Assembly (NCBI GenBank): GCA_963681965.1
Contig: OY820579.1
Span: 2,256,835 to 2,320,834, forward strand
DNA length: 64,000 bases
Direction: 5' to 3'
Origin: a bacterium
GTDB taxonomy: Bacteria; Electryoneota; JAOADG01
Each line of letters opens with the position of its first letter. Position 1 is the first letter of the stretch. The translations under genes were made by a program, and so were the position numbers. Below, one piece after another: positions 3,461 through 59,830 of this stretch. The notes below the pieces were generated by a model. It was not told where the DNA came from and searched no databases. It saw only the letters and a program-made list of their open reading frames with translations.

Positions 3461-3960
3461 GTGTTGGGTGGTAGGTTGTGGGTGTTGGGCAGTAGGGGCA
3501 ACCCACTGCGATCGCCCACCTTTGAAATCTTTTTTCCGTAGGGGCGTATCGCATTCGCCCCAAGCGGCAGGCAGCACCTGACGCAGATGTATATACGGAA
3601 GATAGAAGCGATGCGTGATCGCCTCTATCATAAAGAACCGGGCGTATGTTCTTCACCCGGAGGTGGGGCTTCAGCCCCGCCACAGCTTGTTCTTTTTTTA
3701 TCTTGTATCCTGATTTGTCGTTGCGAGGACTGCAGCGAAGGAACGTGCGTAGCACTTCCGCAGCGGAAGGACGAAGCAATCTATTTTGTGATCTTTCCGT
3801 AGGTACAGACACTCTTGTCTGTACATGTCTGCCGAAGGCAGACACAACAAATGTGGTCGACCGACAGGAGTGTCTGTCGCTACGGAAAAAAAACGGGCAA
3901 TCAGTATTCGCCCACAGCGAACAAAATTCGCACTAATTATTGACGAGAACTATTGAAACA
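3461..3960. repeat. REP-like hairpin cluster (nuoI-nuoJ intercistronic)
   Basis: ccgtaggggcgtatcgcattcgcccc, ggaggtggggcttcagccccgcc, the ~70-nt cgttgcgagg...gaagcaatc element, gtaggtacagacactcttgtctgtac hairpin. Confidence 0.75.
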
Positions 3961-4823: not shown

Positions 4824-5059
4824 TTTTTGGTGTTTTCCGTAGGGGCGTATGGCATACGCCCTGAGCGGCAGGCAACGCCTGACGCAGGTCTTTAAAAAAT
4901 TGAAGATGCGGGCGGTTCGCGAACCGCCCCTACCATGAAAAATGATTTGGGCGTATGCCATACGCCCCTACGGAAAGATAGATTGCCACAGCCCCTACGG
5001 GGCTTCGCAATGACAAATAATTCATCAACAACTCGAAACCAGGAATCGTCTGTAACGTA
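4824..5059. repeat. REP-like hairpin cluster (nuoK-nuoL intercistronic)
   Basis: ccgtaggggcgtatggcatacgccc twice in opposite orientations, gcgggcggttcgcgaaccgcccctacc, cccctacggggcttcgcaatg. Confidence 0.8.
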
Positions 5060-23235: not shown

Positions 23236-24168
23236 CTATTTCTGCAATAACTGTTTAAAATAGGCTATCGTATTGTCAACACCTTCATTTAATTTGATCG
23301 ACGGTTCCCAATTCAAATAGCGATGTGCTTTCGAAATATCCGGACAACGTTGCCGTGGATCGTCGGTCGGGAGTGGTTCGAAGACGATCTTCGAGGGGCT
23401 GTGAATTTTCGAAATGACCAATTTGGCGAAATCGAGGATCGTAAATTCTTCGGGATTTCCAATATTGATCGGACCGTTGGTTTCAGTCTGATCCATCAAC
23501 TTGATCAGACCCGTGATCAAGTCGTCGACATAGCAGAAACTGCGGGTTTGGTTACCCTGTCCGTAAATCGTGATGGGTGCGCCATTTAACGCTTGTACGA
23601 TGAAATTGCTGACGACGCGACCGTCATTCACTGCCATCCGTGGTCCGTAAGTGTTGAAAATACGGGCAATCCGGATATCGACGTTGTTCTGACGTTTGTA
23701 GTCCATCATCAAACATTCTGCTGCGCGCTTCCCTTCGTCGTAACAACTACGCGGACCGATCGGATTGACGTGTCCCCAATACTCTTCGGTCTGGGGGTGG
23801 ATCTCCGGGTCGCCGTATACTTCGGATGTCGATGCAAGCAGGATTCTGGCGCGTACCCGCTTTGCCAATCCGAGCATATTGATCGTGCCGATCACATTGG
23901 TCTTGATCGTCTTGACCGGATTGTAGTTGTAATGGATCGGCGATGCGGGGCAGGCGAGGTGATAGATCTGATCGACTTCGAGCAAGATCGGTTCGACGAC
24001 GTCGTGCCGGATCAATTCGAAATGGTCGTTGTGCAACAGGTGGCGGATATTCGCTTTCGAACCGGTGAAGAAGTTGTCGAGACAGACGACATCGTCGCCT
24101 CGGGCAAGCAACTGGTCGCAAAGATTCGATCCGAGAAATCCGGCACCGCCGGTGACTAAGATGCGCAT
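23236..24168 (-). CDS. UDP-glucuronate decarboxylase (NAD-dependent epimerase/dehydratase family)
   Basis: [16 protein letters not shown]ossmann motif, YDEGKR active-site motif; 310 aa. Confidence 0.9.
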
Positions 24169-24745
24169 AGTTCGATCCTATTCTGATTGGACACGGATAA
24201 TATACTAAATTTCCAGCGAATGAAACCGGTTTCATTTTATAGCAATTGACGGGTATCCATGAATCTTTTATTCTCTTGTAGAGGAGTATCCCCGCAAGCC
24301 CCAGTTCTTCTTCACTTTTCGTTATCCTTTATCCTAGAGTAGGGGCGGGTCCCCGCGCCCGCCCGATCTTGTATCTTCTTTTCATCTTTCCCCTAACACC
24401 TACCACCCATTACCCAACACCCATTTTGTTGATTTGTCGTTGCGAGGAAAACCTTGCGGCAGCGAAGCGGCAAGGTTTAGCGAACACCTTTGAATCTTGT
24501 AAATGTCAGGTTCGCAACACAGCGAAGGAACGTGCGCAGCACTTCCGAAGCGAAGAGACGAAGCAATCTATCTTTTGTAGCCGCAGGCTTTAGACTGCGC
24601 TCTTGAATCTTTTTTATCATTTCCCAACACCCATCACCTTTTCCCTACTACCCATCCATTCCGTGGGTCGGAATTTATTCCGACTCCTCTTGTGGTAGGG
24701 ACGTTCTTACACGTCCGCCCGATGAGGCGATGCAGTCTCTTATTT
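24169..24745. repeat. REP-like hairpin cluster
   Basis: gtaggggcgggtccccgcgcccgcccg, ~70-nt cgttgcgagg element variant, gtagccgcaggctttagactgcg, gtcggaatttattccgac, gtagggacgttcttacacgtccgcccg. Confidence 0.75.
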
Positions 24746-25700
24746 TGTAGGTCAGAACTTGTTCTGACCACCTCTTGTGTCCAAAATTGATGCGGGCGGG
24801 CGCGGGGACCCGCCCTTACTGGAAAATTTGTACGATCGTATTGCTGTAGGTCAGAACTTGTTCTGACCACCTCTTGTGTCCAAAAATGATGCGGGCGGGC
24901 GCGGGGACCCGCCCCTATTGGAAAATTTGTACGATCTTATTGCTGTAGGTCAGAACTTGTTCTGACCACCTCTTGTGTCCAAAAATGATGCGGGCGGGCG
25001 CGGGCGCCCGCCCCTACTGGAAAATTTGTACGATCGTATTGCTGTAGGTCAGAACTTGTTCTGACCACCTCTTGTGTCCAAAATTGATGCGGGCGGGCGC
25101 GGGGACCCGTCCCTACTGGAAAATTTGTTCGATCTTATTGCTGTAGGTCAGAACTTGTTCTGACCACCTCTTGTGTCCAAAAATGATGCGGGCGGGCGCG
25201 GGGACCCGCCCCTACTGGAAAATTTGTACGATCATATTGCGGTAGGTCAGAACTTGTTCTGACCACCTCTTGTGTCCAAAAATGATGCGGGCGGGCGCGG
25301 GGACCCGCCCCTATTGGAAAATTTGTACGATCGTATTGCTGTAGGTCAGAACTTGTTCTGACCACCTCTTGTGTCCAAAAATGATGCGGGCGAGCGCGGG
25401 GACCCGCCCCTACTGGAAAATTTGTACGATCATATTGCGGTAGGTCAGAACTTGTTCTGACCACCTTTTGTGTCCAAAAATGATGCGGGCGGGCGCGGGG
25501 ACCCGCCCCTATTGGAAAATTTGTACGATCGTATTGCTGTAGGTCAGAACTTGTTCTGACCACCTCTTGTGTCCAAAAATGATGCGGGCGGGCGCGGGGA
25601 CCCGCCCCTATTGGAAAATTTGTACGATCGTATTGCTGTAGGTCAGAACTTGTTCTGACCACCTCTTGTGTCCAAAATTGATCGGGCGGGGCGGGGACAG
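24746..25700. repeat. Tandem array, ~10 copies of a 99-bp two-hairpin unit
   Basis: Unit gtaggtcagaacttgttctgacc...gatgcgggcgggcgcggggacccgcccctactggaaaatttgtacgatcgtattgct starts at 24746, 24846, 24945, 25044, 25143, 25242, 25341, 25440, 25539, 25638; only point differences between copies. Confidence 0.9.
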
Positions 25701-25828
25701 AGGATACAAGAAAGAAAAACACAGGCTGAAGCCTGCGGCTACGTTAGTCAAATACGCGGACATTAGTTCGCCGCTACGAAAAAACGGCACATCGGATGAT
25801 GTGCCGCTGAAAAATTCATCGGGAAGAA

Positions 25829-26356
25829 CTAGTTGCCGGACTTGTGTCCATCATGTTTTTCTTCTTTCAATTCCTTTTGCTCTTCCTTCATTTCCCGTTT
25901 CATTTCTTTCTTTTCGTCGCGCATTTCTTTGCGCTCACCCATACTGTCACGCATTTCTTTATGCATTTTGTCGAACTGCTCTTTCTGTTCCGGAGTCAGA
26001 ATCGCGCCGATCTCGCTATTCAATTTTTTCAACAGCTCGCGCTCATGCTGAATAAGCGCTTTCTGAGTGATCGTCGTATCCATCCGAAGCTGCATCGTTT
26101 TGGCGTGATGTGCTGCTACGATGTCGCGAATCGATGTTTGCTGTTTTTCGGTCAATTTCAATTGGTCGGTCAAGCGCTCGATAAATTTATCGCCTCGTTT
26201 GCCATCCATCATTGGATGACCGCGCATTTTTTCCGGTTTATCGGATTTTACCGCCTTCTCCGAAGCAGTCGGTTGATCGGTTTCGGCATACGCGCAAGTA
26301 CCCAATACAAAAACTGCAAGTAACATCAGTATGGTGATTGTTCTAGTTAATCTCAT
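25829..26356 (-). CDS. Periplasmic LTXXQ-motif protein (Spy/CpxP/ZraP-like)
   Basis: Signal peptide MRLTRTITILMLLAVFVLGTCAYA; LTEKQ and LTPEQ motifs; charged helical C-terminus. Confidence 0.6.
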   Translation of the reverse strand: MRLTRTITILMLLAVFVLGTCAYAETDQPTASEKAVKSDKPEKMRGHPMMDGKRGDKFIERLTDQLKLTEKQQTSIRDIVAAHHAKTMQLRMDTTITQKALIQHERELLKKLNSEIGAILTPEQKEQFDKMHKEMRDSMGERKEMRDEKKEMKREMKEEQKELKEEKHDGHKSGN

Positions 26357-32217: not shown

Positions 32218-33017
32218 GTGCATCTCTCCTACAAATTGAGCAAACTAAATGAATTGCAATTGAGTTACAGTCGGCGCGTGCGGCGACCGGATGGTGAGGA
32301 TTTGAATCCATTCCCGGAATATCGCGATCCGTTGAATGTCTGGGCGGGAAATCCGAAACTGTTGCCGGAATATGTGAATGTGCTGGAACTCGGTTGTCAA
32401 TATCTGAATGGCGGATTGATGTTGGTACCGGCGCTGTTCTACCGCAACACGAATAATCGCTTTACCCGGGTCACGCAGACACTGCACGATTCGATCGTCT
32501 TGACGACCATGGAAAATCTGGCTTCCGATCAATCCGGCGGTATCGAATTGAATGTGTCGTGGAATCATCAGAAATCGTTTTCGCTTCACGGATACAGTAG
32601 TGTGTTTTTCGATCAGATCGATGCCACCAATCTTAACAATACAATGGAAAGAAGAATGTTACGACGTGGACCAGCAATATCACGATGGATGTCAATTTGA
32701 CCGAGACCAGCCGGTTTCAACTCAACTCGAATTACAATTCGGCACGATTGACGGCGCAAGGGAAAAACAAACCGTCGTATTCGCTCAATTCCGGTTTTCG
32801 ACAAGAATTGTTTGAAGGAAAATTGACGATCACTGCGACCGTCACGGATATCTTCAAGACGATGAAACGGGAATTCGAGTTGAATATCCCGACGCTGCAG
32901 CAAACATCGGTGAATAAGCGCGACTCGCGCGTAATGTACGTCGGATTGAATTATCGCTTCGGTTCGCAGAAGAAGAAAGCGAAAGAAGACCAGATTAAAT
33001 ACGATGACGGGTTGTAG
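32218..33017 (+). pseudogene. Remnant of an outer-membrane beta-barrel protein gene (C-terminal ~265 codons, frameshifted)
   Basis: No signal peptide or N-terminal domain; reading frame switches near 32650-32700 between track ORFs 32218-32700 and 32685-33017; ends with beta-barrel-like ...YVGLNYRFG; 5' side abuts the repeat cluster. Confidence 0.45.
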
Positions 33018-33040
33018 AATAGATCGCCGTAAAATGTATA

Positions 33041-33068
33041 CGGGCGCTTTGCAGCGCCCGTTTTTTTT
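33041..33068 (+). terminator. Rho-independent terminator
   Basis: cgggcgctttgcagcgcccg hairpin followed by an 8-T run. Confidence 0.6.
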
Positions 33069-33134
33069 GTGTTTCTTACACTCGTTCGAATTTCGTGGTG
33101 AAGTGCCGCAGGATCGGTGGTTCGTAGGTGGTCC
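33068..33134. repeat. Left direct repeat: diverged duplicate of the tnaA 3' end (putative att remnant)
   Basis: gtgtttcttacactcgttcgaatttcgtggtgaagtgccgcaggatcggtggttcgtaggtggtcc is ~92% identical to 36341-36405; on the minus strand it still encodes ...TYEPPILRHFTTKFERV-stop. Confidence 0.7.
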
Positions 33135-33201
33135 TTAAAAGCTAGTTCAACATTCGAACTTAGAATATCAATTAATTGATTGCTAGATAATCTGAATTGG
33201 A

Positions 33202-34011
33202 TTAAATGTAAGGATCGTCCAATTTGCAGTAACTAGCATCAAGAATATTGGCTTTACAACAATAATTCATTAACCAAGTTACATGTTCTTCATCGATGGG
33301 TGGGATATCCTTCTTGAACAAAACGGCTCGATCCAATCTTCCGATCCACTCTCGCGCTTTAGTTACTAATTGAACCTCGATGATACGCGATTCTTGGATC
33401 ATAATTAAAAAATGGATAGCACGATAATTAGTGTCGTGGGAGTACAATTTCGGATTGAAATAATAATTTCTGCATCGATAAATTTTTCGATAAAAGTCAC
33501 GCCATATTTTTACTCCTAATTGCGCAAGTTCGTTAGGAGTCTGGACGACTATTCGAAATCGAACCAAGTCCCAAATATCGTATAAATATTCAGGATAATA
33601 CCCTAACCGTTTTCGTTTCTCAATCGATTTTGCGATTGATTCATCTGATTTCAAGTTACCAAATAAATGTTCGAGCGGAACTTGCGATTTCTCGATATAA
33701 TCAAGTAACACGAGTCGGGAAAAGTCAAAGACTTTCTGTTTCTCATTTTTATCCATCACAAAATCAGACCAGTCAGCGATATTTTGACTAATTCGAAAGC
33801 CTGTTTCCGGGATAACTATTAACTTTCTAGATAATAGATCTACTGACTGATCGTGAAGCAATTGAAAATTGGGATCTGCTGAGTTTGTTCCATTCTCAAT
33901 TTTATTGCCTAACTCTAAAAATTCGGTTCGATCTTTGTCAGAAAGTGAGCACCAGAATTGTTTGAACCATTTGTCATGGCACTCGCAGTATTCGATATGT
34001 CTTTGTAACAT
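33202..34011 (-). CDS. RelA/SpoT-like (RSH/small alarmone synthetase-like) nucleotidyltransferase-fold protein
   Basis: Ordered motifs with RelQ-like spacing: SIAKSIEKRKR, DIWDLVRFRIVV, NYRAIHFLIMI, IEVQLVTKAREW...LFK. By-eye match, not HMM-verified. Confidence 0.5.
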   Translation of the reverse strand: MLQRHIEYCECHDKWFKQFWCSLSDKDRTEFLELGNKIENGTNSADPNFQLLHDQSVDLLSRKLIVIPETGFRISQNIADWSDFVMDKNEKQKVFDFSRLVLLDYIEKSQVPLEHLFGNLKSDESIAKSIEKRKRLGYYPEYLYDIWDLVRFRIVVQTPNELAQLGVKIWRDFYRKIYRCRNYYFNPKLYSHDTNYRAIHFLIMIQESRIIEVQLVTKAREWIGRLDRAVLFKKDIPPIDEEHVTWLMNYCCKANILDASYCKLDDPYI

Positions 34012-34031
34012 TGAGCACTCAAAATTATTAA

Positions 34032-34652
34032 TTACGAGAAATAGATATCATTCTTTGCAAATGTTGATCGAACAGAGTCCTTTCTCTCAACAACAGCAAT
34101 TTTTTTTCCTTTCTTATGAAGTAATAGAAATTCTTTGTTTACTAAATCTTTAATGCGATAATACATTTCACTCGGATTTTGAACTTTGTCAACTTGCCAT
34201 CTCTGAAAATTCGTAAATAAATCTTCAAGAGTGATCTGATCTAATGAATACTCGTATATAAATTCAATTATCTTTTTCTGAGTAAAAGATAATTTTCTAT
34301 AAGAATCCACTAATTTCAGTTCTTGATCTGCAACACTAGGAGCACTCTCGATGGGTATTTTAGATACTGATGTAACAGAATAAAGCGAATATTCGTTAGG
34401 TTTTTGTTTTAAATTAGATTTATGTGAAAGATATGTGAACAAAATCACGAAAAATAATCCAATTAATAATTCAAACACACCTATAAATACTATTAACCCA
34501 TTTGGGTGAGCACGATAAATTATATTATTTGTTTGATTATGCCATTCGAAAATTCCTAATAAAATCATAACTGTTCCACCAAGAACAAATATTGCATCGA
34601 TTCTTGCCTTAAAAAGACTTTTTAAAAGTTCGAACATAATGATCCCTTTCAA
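34032..34652 (-). CDS. Membrane protein: two N-terminal TM helices plus ~110-aa C-terminal winged-helix-like domain (paralog 1)
   Basis: Shares with the next gene the pattern ELLK..KA..D.I.VL.G..M.LLGIFEW..Q.NNII.R.HP and a C-terminal block ...YYRIKDL...G..IAV.E. Confidence 0.55.
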   Translation of the reverse strand: MKGIIMFELLKSLFKARIDAIFVLGGTVMILLGIFEWHNQTNNIIYRAHPNGLIVFIGVFELLIGLFFVILFTYLSHKSNLKQKPNEYSLYSVTSVSKIPIESAPSVADQELKLVDSYRKLSFTQKKIIEFIYEYSLDQITLEDLFTNFQRWQVDKVQNPSEMYYRIKDLVNKEFLLLHKKGKKIAVVERKDSVRSTFAKNDIYFS

Positions 34653-34703
34653 AATAATAAATTAGAGATTAATCGCTTTAAATTGAAATGAATTACCGGT
34701 TAA

Positions 34704-35249
34704 TTAAGAGCACAATATATTCTTTTTTTCCAAAGTTAACTGAACAAAACCAATTTTCTCAATGACAGCTATATTTCTTCCAATATTATGAAGATTAATG
34801 AAACCATTATATTTTAGATCTTTAATTCTATAATAAAATTCGTTTTTGTTTTGAATAATTCCAGGTCTCCAGGCTTGAAAACCATCGAAAAGCACTTCGA
34901 GAGAAATTTCATTTAATAAATGTTGGTAAATAAATTGTACAATCAGCATTTGTGTTAATGTTAAATTGTGATAAGATAAGACTAACTGTTCTTCATAGTC
35001 TCGTTTAGGACTTGCCATCTCCGAATGAACTCTCTGTTGAATATAGAAATTAATAATATAGAGTGAAATACCAATTAATGTTAACAGAATCCCAATAAAA
35101 ATGACAAAACTATGAGGATGTGTTCGAATAATAATGTTATTTAATTGACCATTCCATTCAAAAATACCAAGCAGCAACATCGAAGAACCAACAAGCACTA
35201 AGATGACATCAACTTTTGCTTTAAGAACGCCTTTAAGTAGTTCTAGCAT
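34704..35249 (-). CDS. Membrane protein: two N-terminal TM helices plus C-terminal winged-helix-like domain (paralog 2)
   Basis: Paralog of 34032-34652; start overlaps the stop of the upstream NTase gene (35243-35249). Confidence 0.55.
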   Translation of the reverse strand: MLELLKGVLKAKVDVILVLVGSSMLLLGIFEWNGQLNNIIIRTHPHSFVIFIGILLTLIGISLYIINFYIQQRVHSEMASPKRDYEEQLVLSYHNLTLTQMLIVQFIYQHLLNEISLEVLFDGFQAWRPGIIQNKNEFYYRIKDLKYNGFINLHNIGRNIAVIEKIGFVQLTLEKKNILCS

Positions 35250-36130
35250 GATAAAGCTCGTCTTGGAAGAGAAATATGATTTTTTTCGATAAGTACAATT
35301 TGAGTACTAAATTTTATCTTTACTCTTATAGCGCAATCGGCTGAAAAGCAATTTGGGTGGTTGCCCTTAGTCGACTCAAATAAAAGAATATTTTCTTTCA
35401 TATGAATTGGAAGCGATGATTGTAATGGCATTTGATAATAATTTTGGACGTACTCCTTCATACAACAAAAATAAAAATAGTATGCTGTGGCTTGTTGAAT
35501 CGGTAGAGTGCTGACTTGCAGTGAATCAATAATTTTGTGTTCTTTTAACCACCAATCACATAAAACAAGAAACTCGTAATCAACCAATCCCCCAGCACCG
35601 CTTTTAAAATCCCAATAATGTGGCGATTTTGGGTCGTCGTATTCATCGCTGCGATGTGGGTTTCCGAGGAAGAATCTGTGCAAATTATCGAATGAAGTAT
35701 TTTTCAACCAATACTTGAATTTACTAATAAATTCTTGGTAGATCGACTGGTTTCCTGCAAGAAATCGAAGGTGAGGAAAAGAGACAAGTAATGGAAAAGA
35801 GTAGGTGTCGATTGCTTTATCGAGAGAATTAATGATGAAATGCGTTGGATGATTTGGTGTGTATCGTTTAAGTAGCGATTTTATCAAATCGCGATCAATG
35901 TTTGGTGATCGATAAAGAACGAAGAAATCAATATCGGAAAACTGATTTGGATGACCGCGAGCGTAGCTTCCCCTTAAACAGATAGCAAAAGTTTGATTAT
36001 TCAAAAATGAAGAAATATGCTCTTCGGAAAGATAGGCGTGAAGTTGTTCAACTCGTTTTAAGAATTTCTCTTGATATGTCAGCGATAATTTTAAGAATGT
36101 TGTCGGGTTGTTTGTGATAAACATAAACAA
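35243..36130 (-). CDS. Nucleotidyltransferase with Pol-beta-type motif and GlnD/GlnE-like second motif
   Basis: GSYARGHPNQFSDIDFFVL (GS-x10-DxD) and ~120 aa later DFKSGAGGLVDYEF, resembling the GlnD/GlnE uridylyl/adenylyl-transferase signature. Confidence 0.55.
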   Translation of the reverse strand: MFMFITNNPTTFLKLSLTYQEKFLKRVEQLHAYLSEEHISSFLNNQTFAICLRGSYARGHPNQFSDIDFFVLYRSPNIDRDLIKSLLKRYTPNHPTHFIINSLDKAIDTYSFPLLVSFPHLRFLAGNQSIYQEFISKFKYWLKNTSFDNLHRFFLGNPHRSDEYDDPKSPHYWDFKSGAGGLVDYEFLVLCDWWLKEHKIIDSLQVSTLPIQQATAYYFYFCCMKEYVQNYYQMPLQSSLPIHMKENILLFESTKGNHPNCFSADCAIRVKIKFSTQIVLIEKNHISLPRRALSC

Positions 36131-36300
36131 TACCTATGCAAACTTCATTCGATCACAGTAGTAAAAAAATCCATAAATAGTTTCTTCATGAGGCAATTAG
36201 TATTCTTGTAAAGATAATAATAAACTAAACAAATTCAAAATGGTATTTGGTAAAATATAAACAATCAACTTACATGTTGACGAGATATCTAAAAAATAAT

Positions 36301-41937: not shown

Positions 41938-43245
41938 TCAGACTTCTTTAAGTTTTCCGAATTCTGCGAAGACAATCGGCTTATCCTCTACGACAGCTTT
42001 ATCGCGGATCGCTTTCAGTGTCTTTTGCTGAGCGATTTCAATCTTGATCGATCGGCGACGGACCGGATCCTCGAATTTCTCGCGGATTTCCGCAACCGGA
42101 ACTTTATTGGTCTTGGCATAGACCTGAATTTCATGTTCGATTTCTTCATCGGTCGGTTCGATCGACAACTGCTGGGCAATCCGTTCCGCCAGCAATTCCC
42201 ACTTCGCTTCGTTCTCGGCGGCGGGTTTTACGATCTTCTCGATGAATTCCGGGGGAATTTCAATATCGCGACCTTCGGACAGACGTTCCTTGATCTTCTC
42301 TTCGGCATAGCTGACCAGCGCCGGCGGCAGATCAAGCGTATTGCCCGCAATCACGCTGTCGCGCAACCGGATCAACAACCCTTCTTCGGCACGACGGTCG
42401 GCATTCGCCTGCAATTCGCTCTTCAGCGCATCGCGCAAATCGGCGACAGTCTTGAATTTCGACGTGAACATCTGGGCGTATTCGTCGGTTACTTCCGGCA
42501 ATTCGCGTGTCAATACCCGTTCGACTTTGACCCGGAAGGTATACTTGTTTTCGTGGGTGTGGTCGCCGTGGGTGTGTGTTTCGGTCACTTCCACCTTGCG
42601 CGTTTCACCAGCTATCGCGCCGAGCAACTGGTCGCTGCTGGTCGCACCAAGCGGATCGCCGCTCACCGGGAGCGACTGGATCTGGCGGACAGATTCTTTC
42701 AGTACGAACCCTTCGTCGTCGAGTTGCGCAATTTCACAGGCGAGGAAATTGTCGGCGGTAGCCGCTAAATCGGTATCGAGGTACTTCGCATGTCGGACGC
42801 GCAACTCTTCGAGTGAGGCGTCGATATCGGCTTCGGTCACTTCCACCTGATATTTCCACGCTGCGACGCTATCGAAGCCAACTGCTTCGAATTCCGGTGC
42901 TACCGGGACTTTCGCGGTGAAATTGATATCCTGATTTTCGCCATAGACCACATCGTCGATTTCCGCGGTCGCAACCGGGTCGACTTTCGCTTCGGTCAAT
43001 GCGATCGGGAACGCTTCCTGAATAATTTCTTGTGCCAGTTCCTGCAGGATCGTTTCACCGAACCGCGATTTGATGATGTGCAACGGAATTCTACCGGGGC
43101 GAAAGCCGGGGAGTTTCAATTGGGTTGCGGTGTTATAGAGTTGTTCTTGATAGCGGGTCGACAGCTCTGCGGCTGGAACCGTTACACGGAGTTCGATTGT
43201 GGTCGAATCGATCCGATTGCTGTCGAACTTAATTGCTTCGATCAT
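41938..43245 (-). CDS. tig: Trigger factor
   Basis: N-terminal ribosome-binding signature GFRPGRIP and overall trigger-factor architecture; start set to MIEAIKFD. Confidence 0.85.
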   Translation of the reverse strand: MIEAIKFDSNRIDSTTIELRVTVPAAELSTRYQEQLYNTATQLKLPGFRPGRIPLHIIKSRFGETILQELAQEIIQEAFPIALTEAKVDPVATAEIDDVVYGENQDINFTAKVPVAPEFEAVGFDSVAAWKYQVEVTEADIDASLEELRVRHAKYLDTDLAATADNFLACEIAQLDDEGFVLKESVRQIQSLPVSGDPLGATSSDQLLGAIAGETRKVEVTETHTHGDHTHENKYTFRVKVERVLTRELPEVTDEYAQMFTSKFKTVADLRDALKSELQANADRRAEEGLLIRLRDSVIAGNTLDLPPALVSYAEEKIKERLSEGRDIEIPPEFIEKIVKPAAENEAKWELLAERIAQQLSIEPTDEEIEHEIQVYAKTNKVPVAEIREKFEDPVRRRSIKIEIAQQKTLKAIRDKAVVEDKPIVFAEFGKLKEV

Positions 43246-43314
43246 GAAATTTGTCCTAATGGGTGAATGATTCCGTTCGCATTTGGCAGTACGAACGAAG
43301 AAATAAAACGGGCG

Positions 43315-43396
<82 letters not shown>

Positions 43397-44700: not shown

Positions 44701-46030
44701 CCCAATTCATTCATAGCGAGAATATAATCCGATGCAATCCGTTTTGGTAGCGGCGGAGTAAAAGAGGCCGTTTTTTTTTTGCGTAGGGGCGTATGGCATA
44801 CGCCCGAAGCGGCAGGCAGCGCCTGACGCCGAGTATGTCTCCTGATATGTAAACAAGAGGAGTCGGAATAAATTCCGACCTACCGAAAAGAAGATGCACG
44901 CAGGTTTGGAGGTCTGCATCACCAACAGGATGGGAGTTGGGGGTTAGGAGTTGGGAATTTGGGGAAAAGATCGGTAGCGGCGGACTTTAGTCCGCTCTAA
45001 GTTCTGCTTTCTTTGTAGCCGCAGGCTTCATCCTGCGTTCTTGTATCTTTTTTGATCCTGTATCCTGCAGTGGGGTGACCCTCCGCGAACGCCCGCTCTT
45101 GTATCTTTTTTACCCCAATACCCACAACCTACCACCCACCACCCATTTTTCGTAGGGGCGTATGGCATACGCCCGAAGCGGCAGGCAGTGCCTGACGCCG
45201 AGTATGTATCCTGATATGTGAACAAGAGGAGTCGGAATAAATTCCGACCTACGGAAAAGAAGATACTCGCAGGCTCGGAGGCCTGCGCCACCAAAGACAA
45301 GACACAGGAGGTGGTCAGAACAAGTTCTGACCTACGGAAAAGAAGATGCACGCAGGTTTGGAGGTCTGCGCCACCATCAGGATGGGAGTTGGGGGTTAGG
45401 AGTTGGGAATTTGGGGAAAAGAGGGGTAGCGGCGGACTTTAGTCCGCTCTAAGTTCTGCTTTCTTTGTAGCCGCAGACTTCAGCCTGCGTTTTTTTTCTG
45501 ATTATGACACAAGAGGAGTCGGAATAAATTCCGACCTACGGAAAAGAAGATACTCGCAGGCTCGGATGTATGCACCACCAACAGGATGGGAGTTGGGGGT
45601 TAGGAGTTGGGAATTTGGGGAAAAGAGGGGTAGCGGCGGACTTTAGTCCGCTCTAAGTTCTGCTTTCTTTGTAGCCGCAGGCTTCAGCCTGCTTTTTTTT
45701 TCTGATTATGACACAAGAGGAGTCGGAATAAATTCCGACATACTTCCTGACACAGGAGGTGGTCAGAACAAGTTCTGACCTACGGAAAAGAAGATGCACG
45801 CAGGCTCGGAGGCCTGCGCCGCCAAAGACAAGACACAGGAGGTGGTCAGAACAAGTTCTGACCTACCGCAACACGATCCTCCTATCACCCAATCTTTTTA
45901 GTAGGGGCGGACCCCCGTGTCCGCCCGCTCTCTTTTTTTTTATTCCCCAACGCCCACAACCTACCATCCACCACCCATCTTGTAGCCCCCGCTGGCGGGG
46001 GTTGGGGGTGGTCGCGCCGGTAGGCGCGTG
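44701..46030. repeat. Large BIME-like mosaic of REP hairpins with partly duplicated 200-300-bp blocks
   Basis: Repeated gtcggaataaattccgac, gtaggtcagaacaagttctgacc, gtagcggcggactttagtccgc, gtagccgcaggcttcagcctgcg, gtaggggcgtatggcatacgccc and G-rich gatgggagttgggggttaggagttggg tracts. Confidence 0.8.
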
Positions 46031-59071: not shown

Positions 59072-59830
59072 TTCATGATATGAAGTAGTAGGGGCGGTTC
59101 TCTGCGACCGCCCTTTTTTTATTTCGTAGGGGCGAACCACGAAGTGCTTGCCGAAGGCAAACGATAAAAAGATACAAGATCGGGGGCATGCGGGGATGCC
59201 CCCCTACTAAAAAAGAAAGAGTCGGAATAAATTCCGACTCACGGAAAAGATGGGTGATGGGGGATAGGTGTCGGGTGATGGGAAAAGATAAAAACAGATA
59301 CAAGAACGGGCGGTTCTCTGCGACCGCCATTTTTTTTATTTCGTAGGGGCGAACCACGAAGTGCTCGCCGAAGGCAACCGATAAAAAGATACAAGATCGG
59401 GGGCATGCGGGGATGCCCCCCTACTAAAAAAGAAAGAGTCGGAATAAATTCCGCCCCACGGAAAAGATGGGTGATGGGGGATAGGTGTCGGGTGATGGGA
59501 AAAGATAATAACAGATACAAGAACGGGCGGTTCTCTGCGACCGCCATTTTTTTTATTTCGTAGGGGCGAACCACGAAGTGCTCACCGAAGGCAAACGATA
59601 AAAAGATACAAGATCGGGGGCATGCGGGGATGCCCCCCTACTAAAAAAGAAAGAGTCGGAATAAATTCCGACCCACGGAAAAGATGGGTGATGGGGGATA
59701 GGTGTCGGGTGATGGGAAAAGATAAAAACAGATACAAGATCGGGCGGTTCGCGAACCGCCCCTACTAAAAAAATGAGTCGGAATAAATTCCGCCCCACGG
59801 AAAAGAAGATACTCGCCTCTGTGTGGTGCT
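59072..59830. repeat. BIME-like array: ~3 tandem copies of a ~216-bp unit
   Basis: gtaggggcggttctctgcgaccgcc at ~59088, 59308, 59524, each followed by gggggcatgcggggatgcccccctac, gtcggaataaattccgac and a gatgggtgatgggggataggtgtcgggtgatggg tract. Confidence 0.85.

Follow-up and report, generated by a model that had tools for sequence, protein, structure and literature searches.

We analysed a 64,000-nt window of a bacterial genome (Electryoneota, JAOADG01; assembly GCA_963681965.1, contig OY820579.1, positions 2,256,835 to 2,320,834 of the forward strand), with a focus on a tandem array of two-hairpin units at 24746-25698 (window coordinates; the array as a whole carries no strand). The array lies between two genes that are both on the minus strand, an LTXXQ/Spy-CpxP-like periplasmic protein gene, first in the direction of transcription (25829-26356), and an NAD-dependent epimerase gene (UDP-glucuronate decarboxylase-like), second (23236-24168). 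Tandem Repeats Finder, the check proposed in an earlier note on this sequence, recovered a period of 99 bp with 9.6 copies, 95% matches, 0% indels and a score of 1752. An in-register cut places nine full units at 24746-25636 and a tenth at 25637-25698 that breaks off after about 60 nt. The earlier note had described ten head-to-tail copies of a 99-bp unit that differ by point substitutions only. The head-to-tail repeat stands, the count becomes 9.6 because the tenth unit is truncated, and the differences are indeed restricted to substitutions, which affect 11 of the 99 columns.

Each unit opens with a T (column 1) and a GTAG tetranucleotide (columns 2-5) at hairpin A (GGTCAGAAC TT GTTCTGACC, columns 5-24). 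There follow a spacer, ACCTCTTGTGTCCAAAAATGATGC (columns 25-48), hairpin B (GGGCGGG CGCGGGGA CCCGCCC, columns 49-70), the tetranucleotide CTAC, which is GTAG on the minus strand (columns 71-74), and a linker, TGGAAAATTTGTACGATCGTATTGC (columns 75-99). The spacer of 24 nt and the inter-unit linker of 26 nt are constant in every unit, and the 25-nt linker sequence occurs nine times against an expectation of 0 from 100 shuffles. Hairpin A has a 9-bp stem and a 2-nt loop, with no variation in any of the ten copies; hairpin B has a stem of 7-8 bp and a loop of 6-8 nt. The two hairpins per unit reported earlier were recovered in every unit by in-register listing and by folding, which also indicates that A and B form separate stem-loops, as DNA or RNA, on either strand.

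A GTAG tetranucleotide stands at the foot of both hairpins, on opposite strands, a feature overlooked in the earlier note. A GTAG beside a short palindrome defines the superfamily of repetitive extragenic palindromic (REP) elements present in many phyla (PMC3733652), and in Escherichia coli the REP-associated transposase can neither bind nor cleave without this tag (PMC3333891). The two tagged hairpins are here called REP-A (GTAG + GGTCAGAAC-TT-GTTCTGACC, plus strand) and REP-B (GTAG + GGGCGGGT-CCCCGC-GCCCGCCC, minus strand). Both are short stem-loops within the bounds of the superfamily (stem of 6-13 bp, 20-40 nt), and both have the unpaired GTAG at one foot of the hairpin. The tag of REP-A is present in all ten copies, and the lack of any variation over 23 columns in these ten copies is only marginally unusual (P ~0.045). 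The tags of REP-A and REP-B face outward and the junction between units is tail-to-tail; by the nomenclature of Di Nocera et al. 2013 (PMC3733652), each unit is a hybrid REP heterodimer in head-to-head arrangement.

The units, all given on the plus strand, can be told apart by a few substitutions. The REP-B tag is degenerate (GTAA) in unit 1 (24746-24844) and reads ATAG in unit 2 (24845-24943), where a G>T change at column 93 also creates an in-frame TAA in the minus-strand reading frame discussed below. Unit 3 (24944-25042) retains an intact GTAG, and a GA>CG double substitution in its loop turns hairpin B into a perfect 10-bp palindrome. Unit 4 (25043-25141) has an intact tag, a C>T stem mismatch at column 68 and, with G>T at column 93, a second in-frame stop. 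Unit 5 (25142-25240) is nearest to the consensus, with REP-A and its GTAG at 25143-25165, hairpin B at 25190-25211 and CTAC at 25212-25215. Unit 6 (25241-25339) carries ATAG and a G at column 1, unit 7 (25340-25438) differs from unit 5 at one position and has a G>A mismatch in the REP-B stem at column 54, unit 8 (25439-25537) differs from unit 6 at one position and again carries ATAG, as does unit 9 (25538-25636). In the truncated unit 10 (25637-25698) REP-A and the spacer are intact and are followed by a degenerate half hairpin B (CGGGCGGGGCGGGGAC), where similarity stops.

The array is embedded in further elements of this kind. A solitary copy of REP-B, GTAGGGGCGGGTCCCCGCGCCCGCCC, lies at 24339-24364 on the plus strand in an orientation opposite to that of the array copies, and short-read contig L004 ends just beyond it. 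A REP of another class, GTAGCCGCAGGCTTTAGACTGCG, occupies 24577-24599 (plus strand), and two REP-like hairpins, the GTGG-tagged GTCGGAATTTATTCCGAC and GTAGGGACGTTCTTACACGTCC, precede the array at 24664-24716 (plus strand). At the other end, GTAGCCGCAGGCTTCAGCCTGTG, a minus-strand REP at 25720-25742, abuts the array and is followed by a canonical hairpin with a T-run resembling an intrinsic terminator (25783-25808, minus strand), which along the direction of transcription comes immediately after the LTXXQ gene and ahead of the array. We counted 13 terminator-like sites against 2.6 +/- 1.6 expected, and nine of them are minus-strand REP-B copies: on this strand CAUCAUUUUU comes after the GC-rich hairpin of each REP-B.

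Given both hairpins and their opposite GTAG tags, the unit is a tandemly repeated mosaic of two REPs, matching the definition of the bacterial interspersed mosaic element (BIME) of type 2. By definition, a BIME-2 contains two REP types whose tandem copies at any one locus are well conserved (PMC3333891). The array holds two REP types in alternating orientation with fixed linkers, in 9.6 tandem copies at 95% identity, and the proposal of an amplified BIME in the earlier note is borne out to this extent. The y and z2 palindromic-unit sequences of enterobacteria are not found; its sequences are unrelated to the E. coli consensus, so the array is BIME-2-like in architecture and not a member of the enterobacterial family. 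We consider it highly probable that the array is a non-coding BIME-like cluster produced by tandem amplification of one REP heterodimer.

The closest match among known systems is the E. coli BIME-2 class, including REP325, an element of 12 hairpins in six two-hairpin units that lies between the co-directional genes yjdM and yjdN (bioRxiv 10.64898/2026.03.23.713779). Like the array, these elements consist of two GTAG palindrome types that alternate with fixed short linkers, form head-to-tail two-hairpin units in near-identical copies and lie between co-directional genes. They differ in that the y/z2 units are unrelated in sequence and E. coli REPs have mismatched stems, whereas the array stems are perfect. 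The array is also bigger: its 99-bp unit is longer, and it holds 19 hairpins and a remnant against a stated E. coli maximum of 12 palindromic units. The GTAG superfamily at large, exemplified by the SMAG elements of Stenotrophomonas maltophilia (PMC3733652), shares with the array the unpaired GTAG, the stem of 6-13 bp and the short loop. SMAGs share with the REPs of the window the coexistence of several stem classes that vary by compensatory changes, as well as head-to-head or tail-to-tail dimers with spacers of 20-100 bp, heterodimers and clusters of tandem dimers; that survey counts both "dimers reiterated in tandem" and hybrid heterodimers among REP clusters (PMC3733652). The REPINs of Pseudomonas (Bertels and Rainey) are likewise non-autonomous, with a single-copy domesticated Y1 transposase as their presumed means of movement. 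The arms of a REPIN, however, are near-identical and can form one long hairpin, a structure absent from the array, whose arms are unrelated palindromes that fold apart. An exact search with the REP-A 23-mer found it neither in GTDB representative genomes nor in the metagenome collection. The sequences of the array are new and the array is larger than the E. coli examples, but the kind of element is already known.

The hairpins of the array belong to a large population. Outside the array, the window contains 140 perfect hairpins with stems of at least 7 bp, compared with 32-55 in ten dinucleotide shuffles, and 58 of the 140 have GTAG or CTAC at the foot, compared with 0-2 of the 32-55 hairpins in the shuffles (the chance background for the tag is about 1% per hairpin side). 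A more permissive scan of the 64 kb recovered about 94 elements outside the array that combine GTAG with a hairpin, in at least 12 stem classes with at least two copies each. Save for a few chance matches these elements are intergenic, so that they are extragenic, dispersed and of high copy number, and on the GTAG strand their flanks are T-rich. Solitary copies in the window number 11 for REP-A and two for REP-B. The array-type dimer, composed of a GC-rich REP, the spacer GCATC(T/A)TTTT-GGACACAAGAGG and an AT-richer REP of GTCGGAAT type, recurs with different hairpins at seven further sites (15708, 19549, 50662, 50983, 51304, 54533 and 62225). Moreover, the 13 nt that precede REP-A in the array are common to solitary copies at 50427 and 45870. 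The shared dimer type, stem classes and 13-nt lead-in indicate that the unit was put together from elements that are standard in this genome.

Patterns of substitution in the stems establish which property of these elements is maintained. The GC-rich classes constitute one superfamily, GTAG-GGGCG-NNN-CCCCGC-N'N'N'-CGCCC. Across 14 distinct GC-rich REPs, 96% of stem cells are paired, and double compensatory changes occur at four of the eight pairs. The covariation score of this set is 0.53, against 0.16 in shuffles, none of 500 of which scored as high; slid registers pair only 38-49%, and the score exceeds all of them. Structure is therefore what is conserved in the GC-rich REPs. Stem variants that keep complementarity also define compensatory sub-families: REP-A and the abundant GTCGGAAT-TT-ATTCCGAC class are two compensatory pairs apart, and a half-way G-T intermediate is present at 50438.

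Over the window and its 18 kb of flanks (82 kb in total, 1.9% of the 4.34-Mb genome) REPs occur at a density of about one element per kb. If this density extrapolates from 82 kb to the whole genome, the load would exceed the approximately 600 copies of E. coli or the approximately 1,650 of S. maltophilia. The coding density of the window is 76%, and half of the intergenic gaps, among them gaps within the nuo operon, measure at least 300 bp. The genes of this operon, which encode NADH dehydrogenase, are separated by REP clusters of 236-723 bp (881-1603, 2657-2959, 3461-3960 and 4824-5059). Four further tandem arrays were identified in the window, at 45301-45743 (period of 204 bp), 50496-51334 (321), 57096-57357 (121) and 59092-59750 (217), their units being composites of repeat modules, mostly GTAG REPs of different classes. 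Another array lies between nuoC and nuoD, 4.4-3.9 kb upstream of window position 1 (L096 3955-4535), with a period of 101, 5.8 copies and 98% identity. Its module, TTGTCGTTGCGAGGA...GACGAAGCAATCT, differs from the unit studied here, is present in an inverted copy that closes that array, and appears again at 24430-24570, adjoining the studied array. With six tandem arrays in 82 kb, the studied one included, tandem amplification is common here. We also observed G-rich modules of GGGTRG type (C-rich on the other strand), such as GGGTAGTGGGTAGTAGGTGGTAGG, near REP clusters (56854-56944, 24370-24425 and 24610-24660); these might form G-quadruplexes.

A link to transposases comes from a related REP, the 22-mer GTAGGTCGGAATTTATTCCGAC, from which REP-A differs by two compensatory stem changes. 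This REP has nine copies in the window (e.g., 877-898, 44862-44883 and 50675-50696) and matches exactly in at least 120 metagenome contigs (loci L098-L177). The 80 contigs listed range in GC content from 35 to 68% and derive from soils, sediments, bioreactors and the TARA oceans, and in metagenome contigs the REP occurs mostly as a dimer with a GTCGGGTTAAAACCCGAC-CTAC partner. The same REP core in such different genomes suggests horizontal spread of REPs with their REP-associated tyrosine transposases (RAYTs) or a strong constraint imposed by the transposase. In one TARA ocean contig (L155, 13400-14364), tandem heterodimers of GTAGGTCGGAATTTATTCCGAC and its partner flank both sides of a gene for a 149-aa protein that matches the Pfam family Y1_Tnp and whose homologues are annotated as REP-associated tyrosine transposase or RayT. 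Judged by its sequence, this locus has the makeup of a textbook REPtron. Its arrangement shows the GTAGGTCGGAATTTATTCCGAC class of REP flanking a putative RayT gene, which makes this class transposase-associated elsewhere. Short tandem two-hairpin arrays (65-79 bp, 2.6-3.8 copies) are found in L155 and in two more of these contigs, L162 and L171.

The host belongs to an extremely poorly sampled lineage, as its isolated trigger factor reveals. This protein (41938-43353, minus strand), which is without the FKBP-type PPIase domain, matches a single relative, at 58% identity, in 5.8 billion protein clusters, all other matches being at 29% or less; the epimerase next to the array is too conserved to place, with best matches 69-70% identical in many phyla. 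Several secreted proteins carry a type IX secretion sorting domain, which suggests affiliation with the Fibrobacteres-Chlorobi-Bacteroidetes group. The survey of GTAG REPs recorded them in Proteobacteria, Cyanobacteria, Chloroflexi and the PVC group (PMC3733652), whereas the host studied here has these sorting domains and a very isolated position. The relative keeps the gene order around tig, has a coding density of 92% over 21 kb (estimated from its gene table) and shows no GTAG-tagged hairpins in these 21 kb, with ordinary terminators instead. Consequently, the REP load is specific to the lineage studied here. In the relative, the block of LTXXQ, Vut_1 and peptidase C25 genes is inverted with respect to the tig block and ends in a bidirectional terminator with a 17-bp stem (L086 16449-16513). 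Comparison of window positions 25700-25830 with L086 shows that the 3' end of the LTXXQ gene meets the array here and a plain terminator in the relative, and the inversion places the array at a breakpoint of synteny or rearrangement. Elsewhere in the window, a low-GC island at 33000-36300 (31-42% against about 50%) holds RelA/SpoT-like and nucleotidyltransferase-domain proteins and unannotated open reading frames (ORFs), and adjoins an outer-membrane beta-barrel gene split into ORFs 32218-32700 and 32685-33017. This island is absent from the syntenic region of the relative and is probably a foreign insertion.

These patterns are compatible with a simple chronology of the array. A REP-A/REP-B dimer of the type that recurs in the window would first have settled downstream of the LTXXQ gene, possibly seeded by a RAYT, as the GTAG tag and the REPtron of a sister REP elsewhere would suggest, and would then have multiplied where it stood, through unequal recombination or through slippage of replication between direct repeats. 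At its end the array carries an additional REP-A with its spacer and a decayed half REP-B, so that there are n+1 copies of REP-A, the pattern expected when duplication begins between two direct repeats. A single position separates unit 5 from unit 7, and likewise unit 6 from unit 8, while neighbouring units differ at 3-5 positions, which indicates that a two-unit block of 198 bp (5-6, 7-8) was duplicated. The ATAG form of the REP-B tag is common to units 2, 6, 8 and 9; units with this tag were themselves copied, so growth had no need for an intact REP-B tag. Transposase-based models of BIME amplification have been proposed for E. coli (PMC3333891). They are not contradicted by the signs of in-place growth, which nevertheless make them unnecessary here, and expansion was probably achieved by host recombination.

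The effect of the array on its neighbours can be approached by analogy with REP325, which terminates transcription in part, stabilises mRNA and gives rise to a ladder of transcripts that end in hairpins (bioRxiv 10.64898/2026.03.23.713779). Minus-strand transcription entering from the LTXXQ side would yield nine GC-rich hairpins, each with a U-rich tract after it. By that analogy, these hairpins would dampen transcription that runs on into the epimerase gene and would stop 3' exonucleases. Given the canonical terminator that precedes the array and the decay of tags and stems within it, the array is no less likely to be neutral selfish DNA than to have a selected function.

Several observations weigh against the BIME-like reading or parts of it. 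In the window and the 18 kb of flanks, which amount to 1.9% of the genome, no RAYT or other Y1 transposase was detected by Pfam analysis of about 30 window proteins, gene tables of the flanks and tblastn with the RayT of L155, and none of the best 120 of 1,845 homologues of this RayT came from the full-length contig (contig_1 of ENA ERZ21878129). Of the nine full units, four retain the GTAG of REP-B, and the others have GTAA or ATAG. The hairpin stems in the array are perfect palindromes, whereas binding of the E. coli TnpA-REP depends on a stem mismatch (PMC3333891). Because short-read contigs end at the edges of the array, its copy number is that of one long contig, and none of the collections searched contained a second strain. 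Finally, the terminator at 25783-25808 may keep transcription into the array low, which weakens the functional argument.

Alternative identities of the repeat must also be weighed, among them a gene in the open frame. The earlier note had reported an open frame of 33 codons per unit and a 195-aa ORF, dismissing it as an artefact. The ORF exists on the minus strand at 25135-25722, spans units 5-10 from a GTG start with the repeat peptide described earlier, and is annotated as a gene in the output of the ENA pipeline; past the stop of unit 2 the same frame resumes in a spurious 78-aa ORF (24634-24870, minus strand). The consensus unit is open in this frame, which could be taken to mean a real gene for a protein of 33-residue repeats, yet TAA stops interrupt units 2 and 4 of the nine, leaving only about six units open. 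Of the 19 departures from consensus, 12 are nonsynonymous, 5 are synonymous and 2 create stops, and third positions are not affected more often than chance predicts, so that neither an uninterrupted frame nor purifying selection is found. The ORF has no Pfam match, and no homologue was recovered among the 5.8 billion protein clusters, a weak negative in that the search likewise failed to recover the self match. An open frame is unsurprising in a 99-bp unit dominated by two palindromes, and these palindromes are seen about 100 times elsewhere in non-coding DNA. A protein gene is thus highly improbable; the 33-codon frame is not a gene, and the verdict of the earlier note is upheld. A degenerate CRISPR-like or other spacer-acquiring locus is more improbable still. 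Like CRISPR arrays, the locus has regularly spaced short palindromic repeats, and a search of Rfam at E-values up to 1 gave a single CRISPR-DR29 match (22.5 bits against a gathering score of 39, E of 0.077). This match is confined to unit 3, the one whose loop mutation yields the perfect 10-bp palindrome, and at gathering thresholds Rfam identified nothing in the array and only one tRNA elsewhere. The sequence between hairpins does not vary from unit to unit, which by itself refutes a CRISPR array, as the earlier note had argued. Unique spacers, a leader and a cas context are lacking, no cas or transposase domains were found among the approximately 30 window proteins scanned with Pfam, and the hairpins of the array are also dispersed through the window as singletons and dimers. 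Two units matched nothing by blastn in plasmid and phage collections. An integron attC array (no cassettes), iterons or a replication origin (chromosomal housekeeping context and no skew switch) and a miniature inverted-repeat transposable element (no terminal inverted repeats seen) were also considered and rejected.

Other alternatives accept the repeat and dispute its size, its role or its mode of growth. It is unlikely that assembly error, whether expansion or collapse, accounts for the number of copies or the order of the units. The window is identical to part of contig_1 of ENA ERZ21878129 (4,339,467 bp), the single long contig that carries the array, and the short-read contigs of Logan ERR12015701 stop at 24367 and 25657, the edges of repeated DNA. 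These same contigs independently confirm both unique flanks, and the distinct substitution patterns, the higher-order structure and the absence of indels over 953 bp are unlike a collapsed or mis-polished repeat. The exact proteins of three flanking genes matched only this genome and its own short-read contigs. Equally hard to favour is an array that is primarily a functional RNA with copy number kept by selection, either a multi-terminator or insulator or a precursor of small RNAs resembling the naRNAs proposed for E. coli REP325 as two-hairpin small RNAs (bioRxiv 10.64898/2026.03.23.713779). The nine minus-strand hairpins with U-tracts resemble terminators, the array is placed between two co-directional genes as is REP325 with its transcript ladder, and G-U-compatible stem variants are present. 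No Rfam family applies, however, a standard terminator already stands ahead of the array, the only relative has neither array nor REPs at the syntenic 3' end of LTXXQ, and tags and stems decay within the array as expected of neutral DNA. A bolder proposal, slightly more plausible than these two but still doubtful, holds that an active multi-family REP/RAYT system invaded this deep-branching lineage after its split from the only known relative, possibly across phyla, and that the array grew by transposase strand transfer or rolling-circle addition of BIME units in place of host recombination; the 22-nt identity of one of its REPs with the RayT-flanking REP of metagenome contigs of 35-68% GC belongs to this proposal. 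If growth were catalysed by a transposase in this way, the genome would offer a natural system for studying BIME amplification.

The reading of the array as a BIME-like cluster has consequences for how this genome is described. Neither the 195-aa ORF nor the many other short ORFs that run across these palindromes should be annotated as genes. The REP clusters also account for the break-up of the organism's short-read assemblies into contigs of 1-5 kb: the ends of short contigs at repeat edges fit a genome-wide REP load, L002, L004, L095 and L097 of ERR12015701 measuring 1.3-4.7 kb, with L002 and L004 ending at 25657 and 24367. The array itself is an ordinary though large cluster of BIME type, and its setting, a REP-saturated genome in a lineage that has hardly been sampled, is more notable. 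A RAYT set in the full genome, should one be found, would take REP/RAYT biology into phyla outside those surveyed to date and would provide a case of recent, massive REP colonisation accompanied by abundant tandem amplification.

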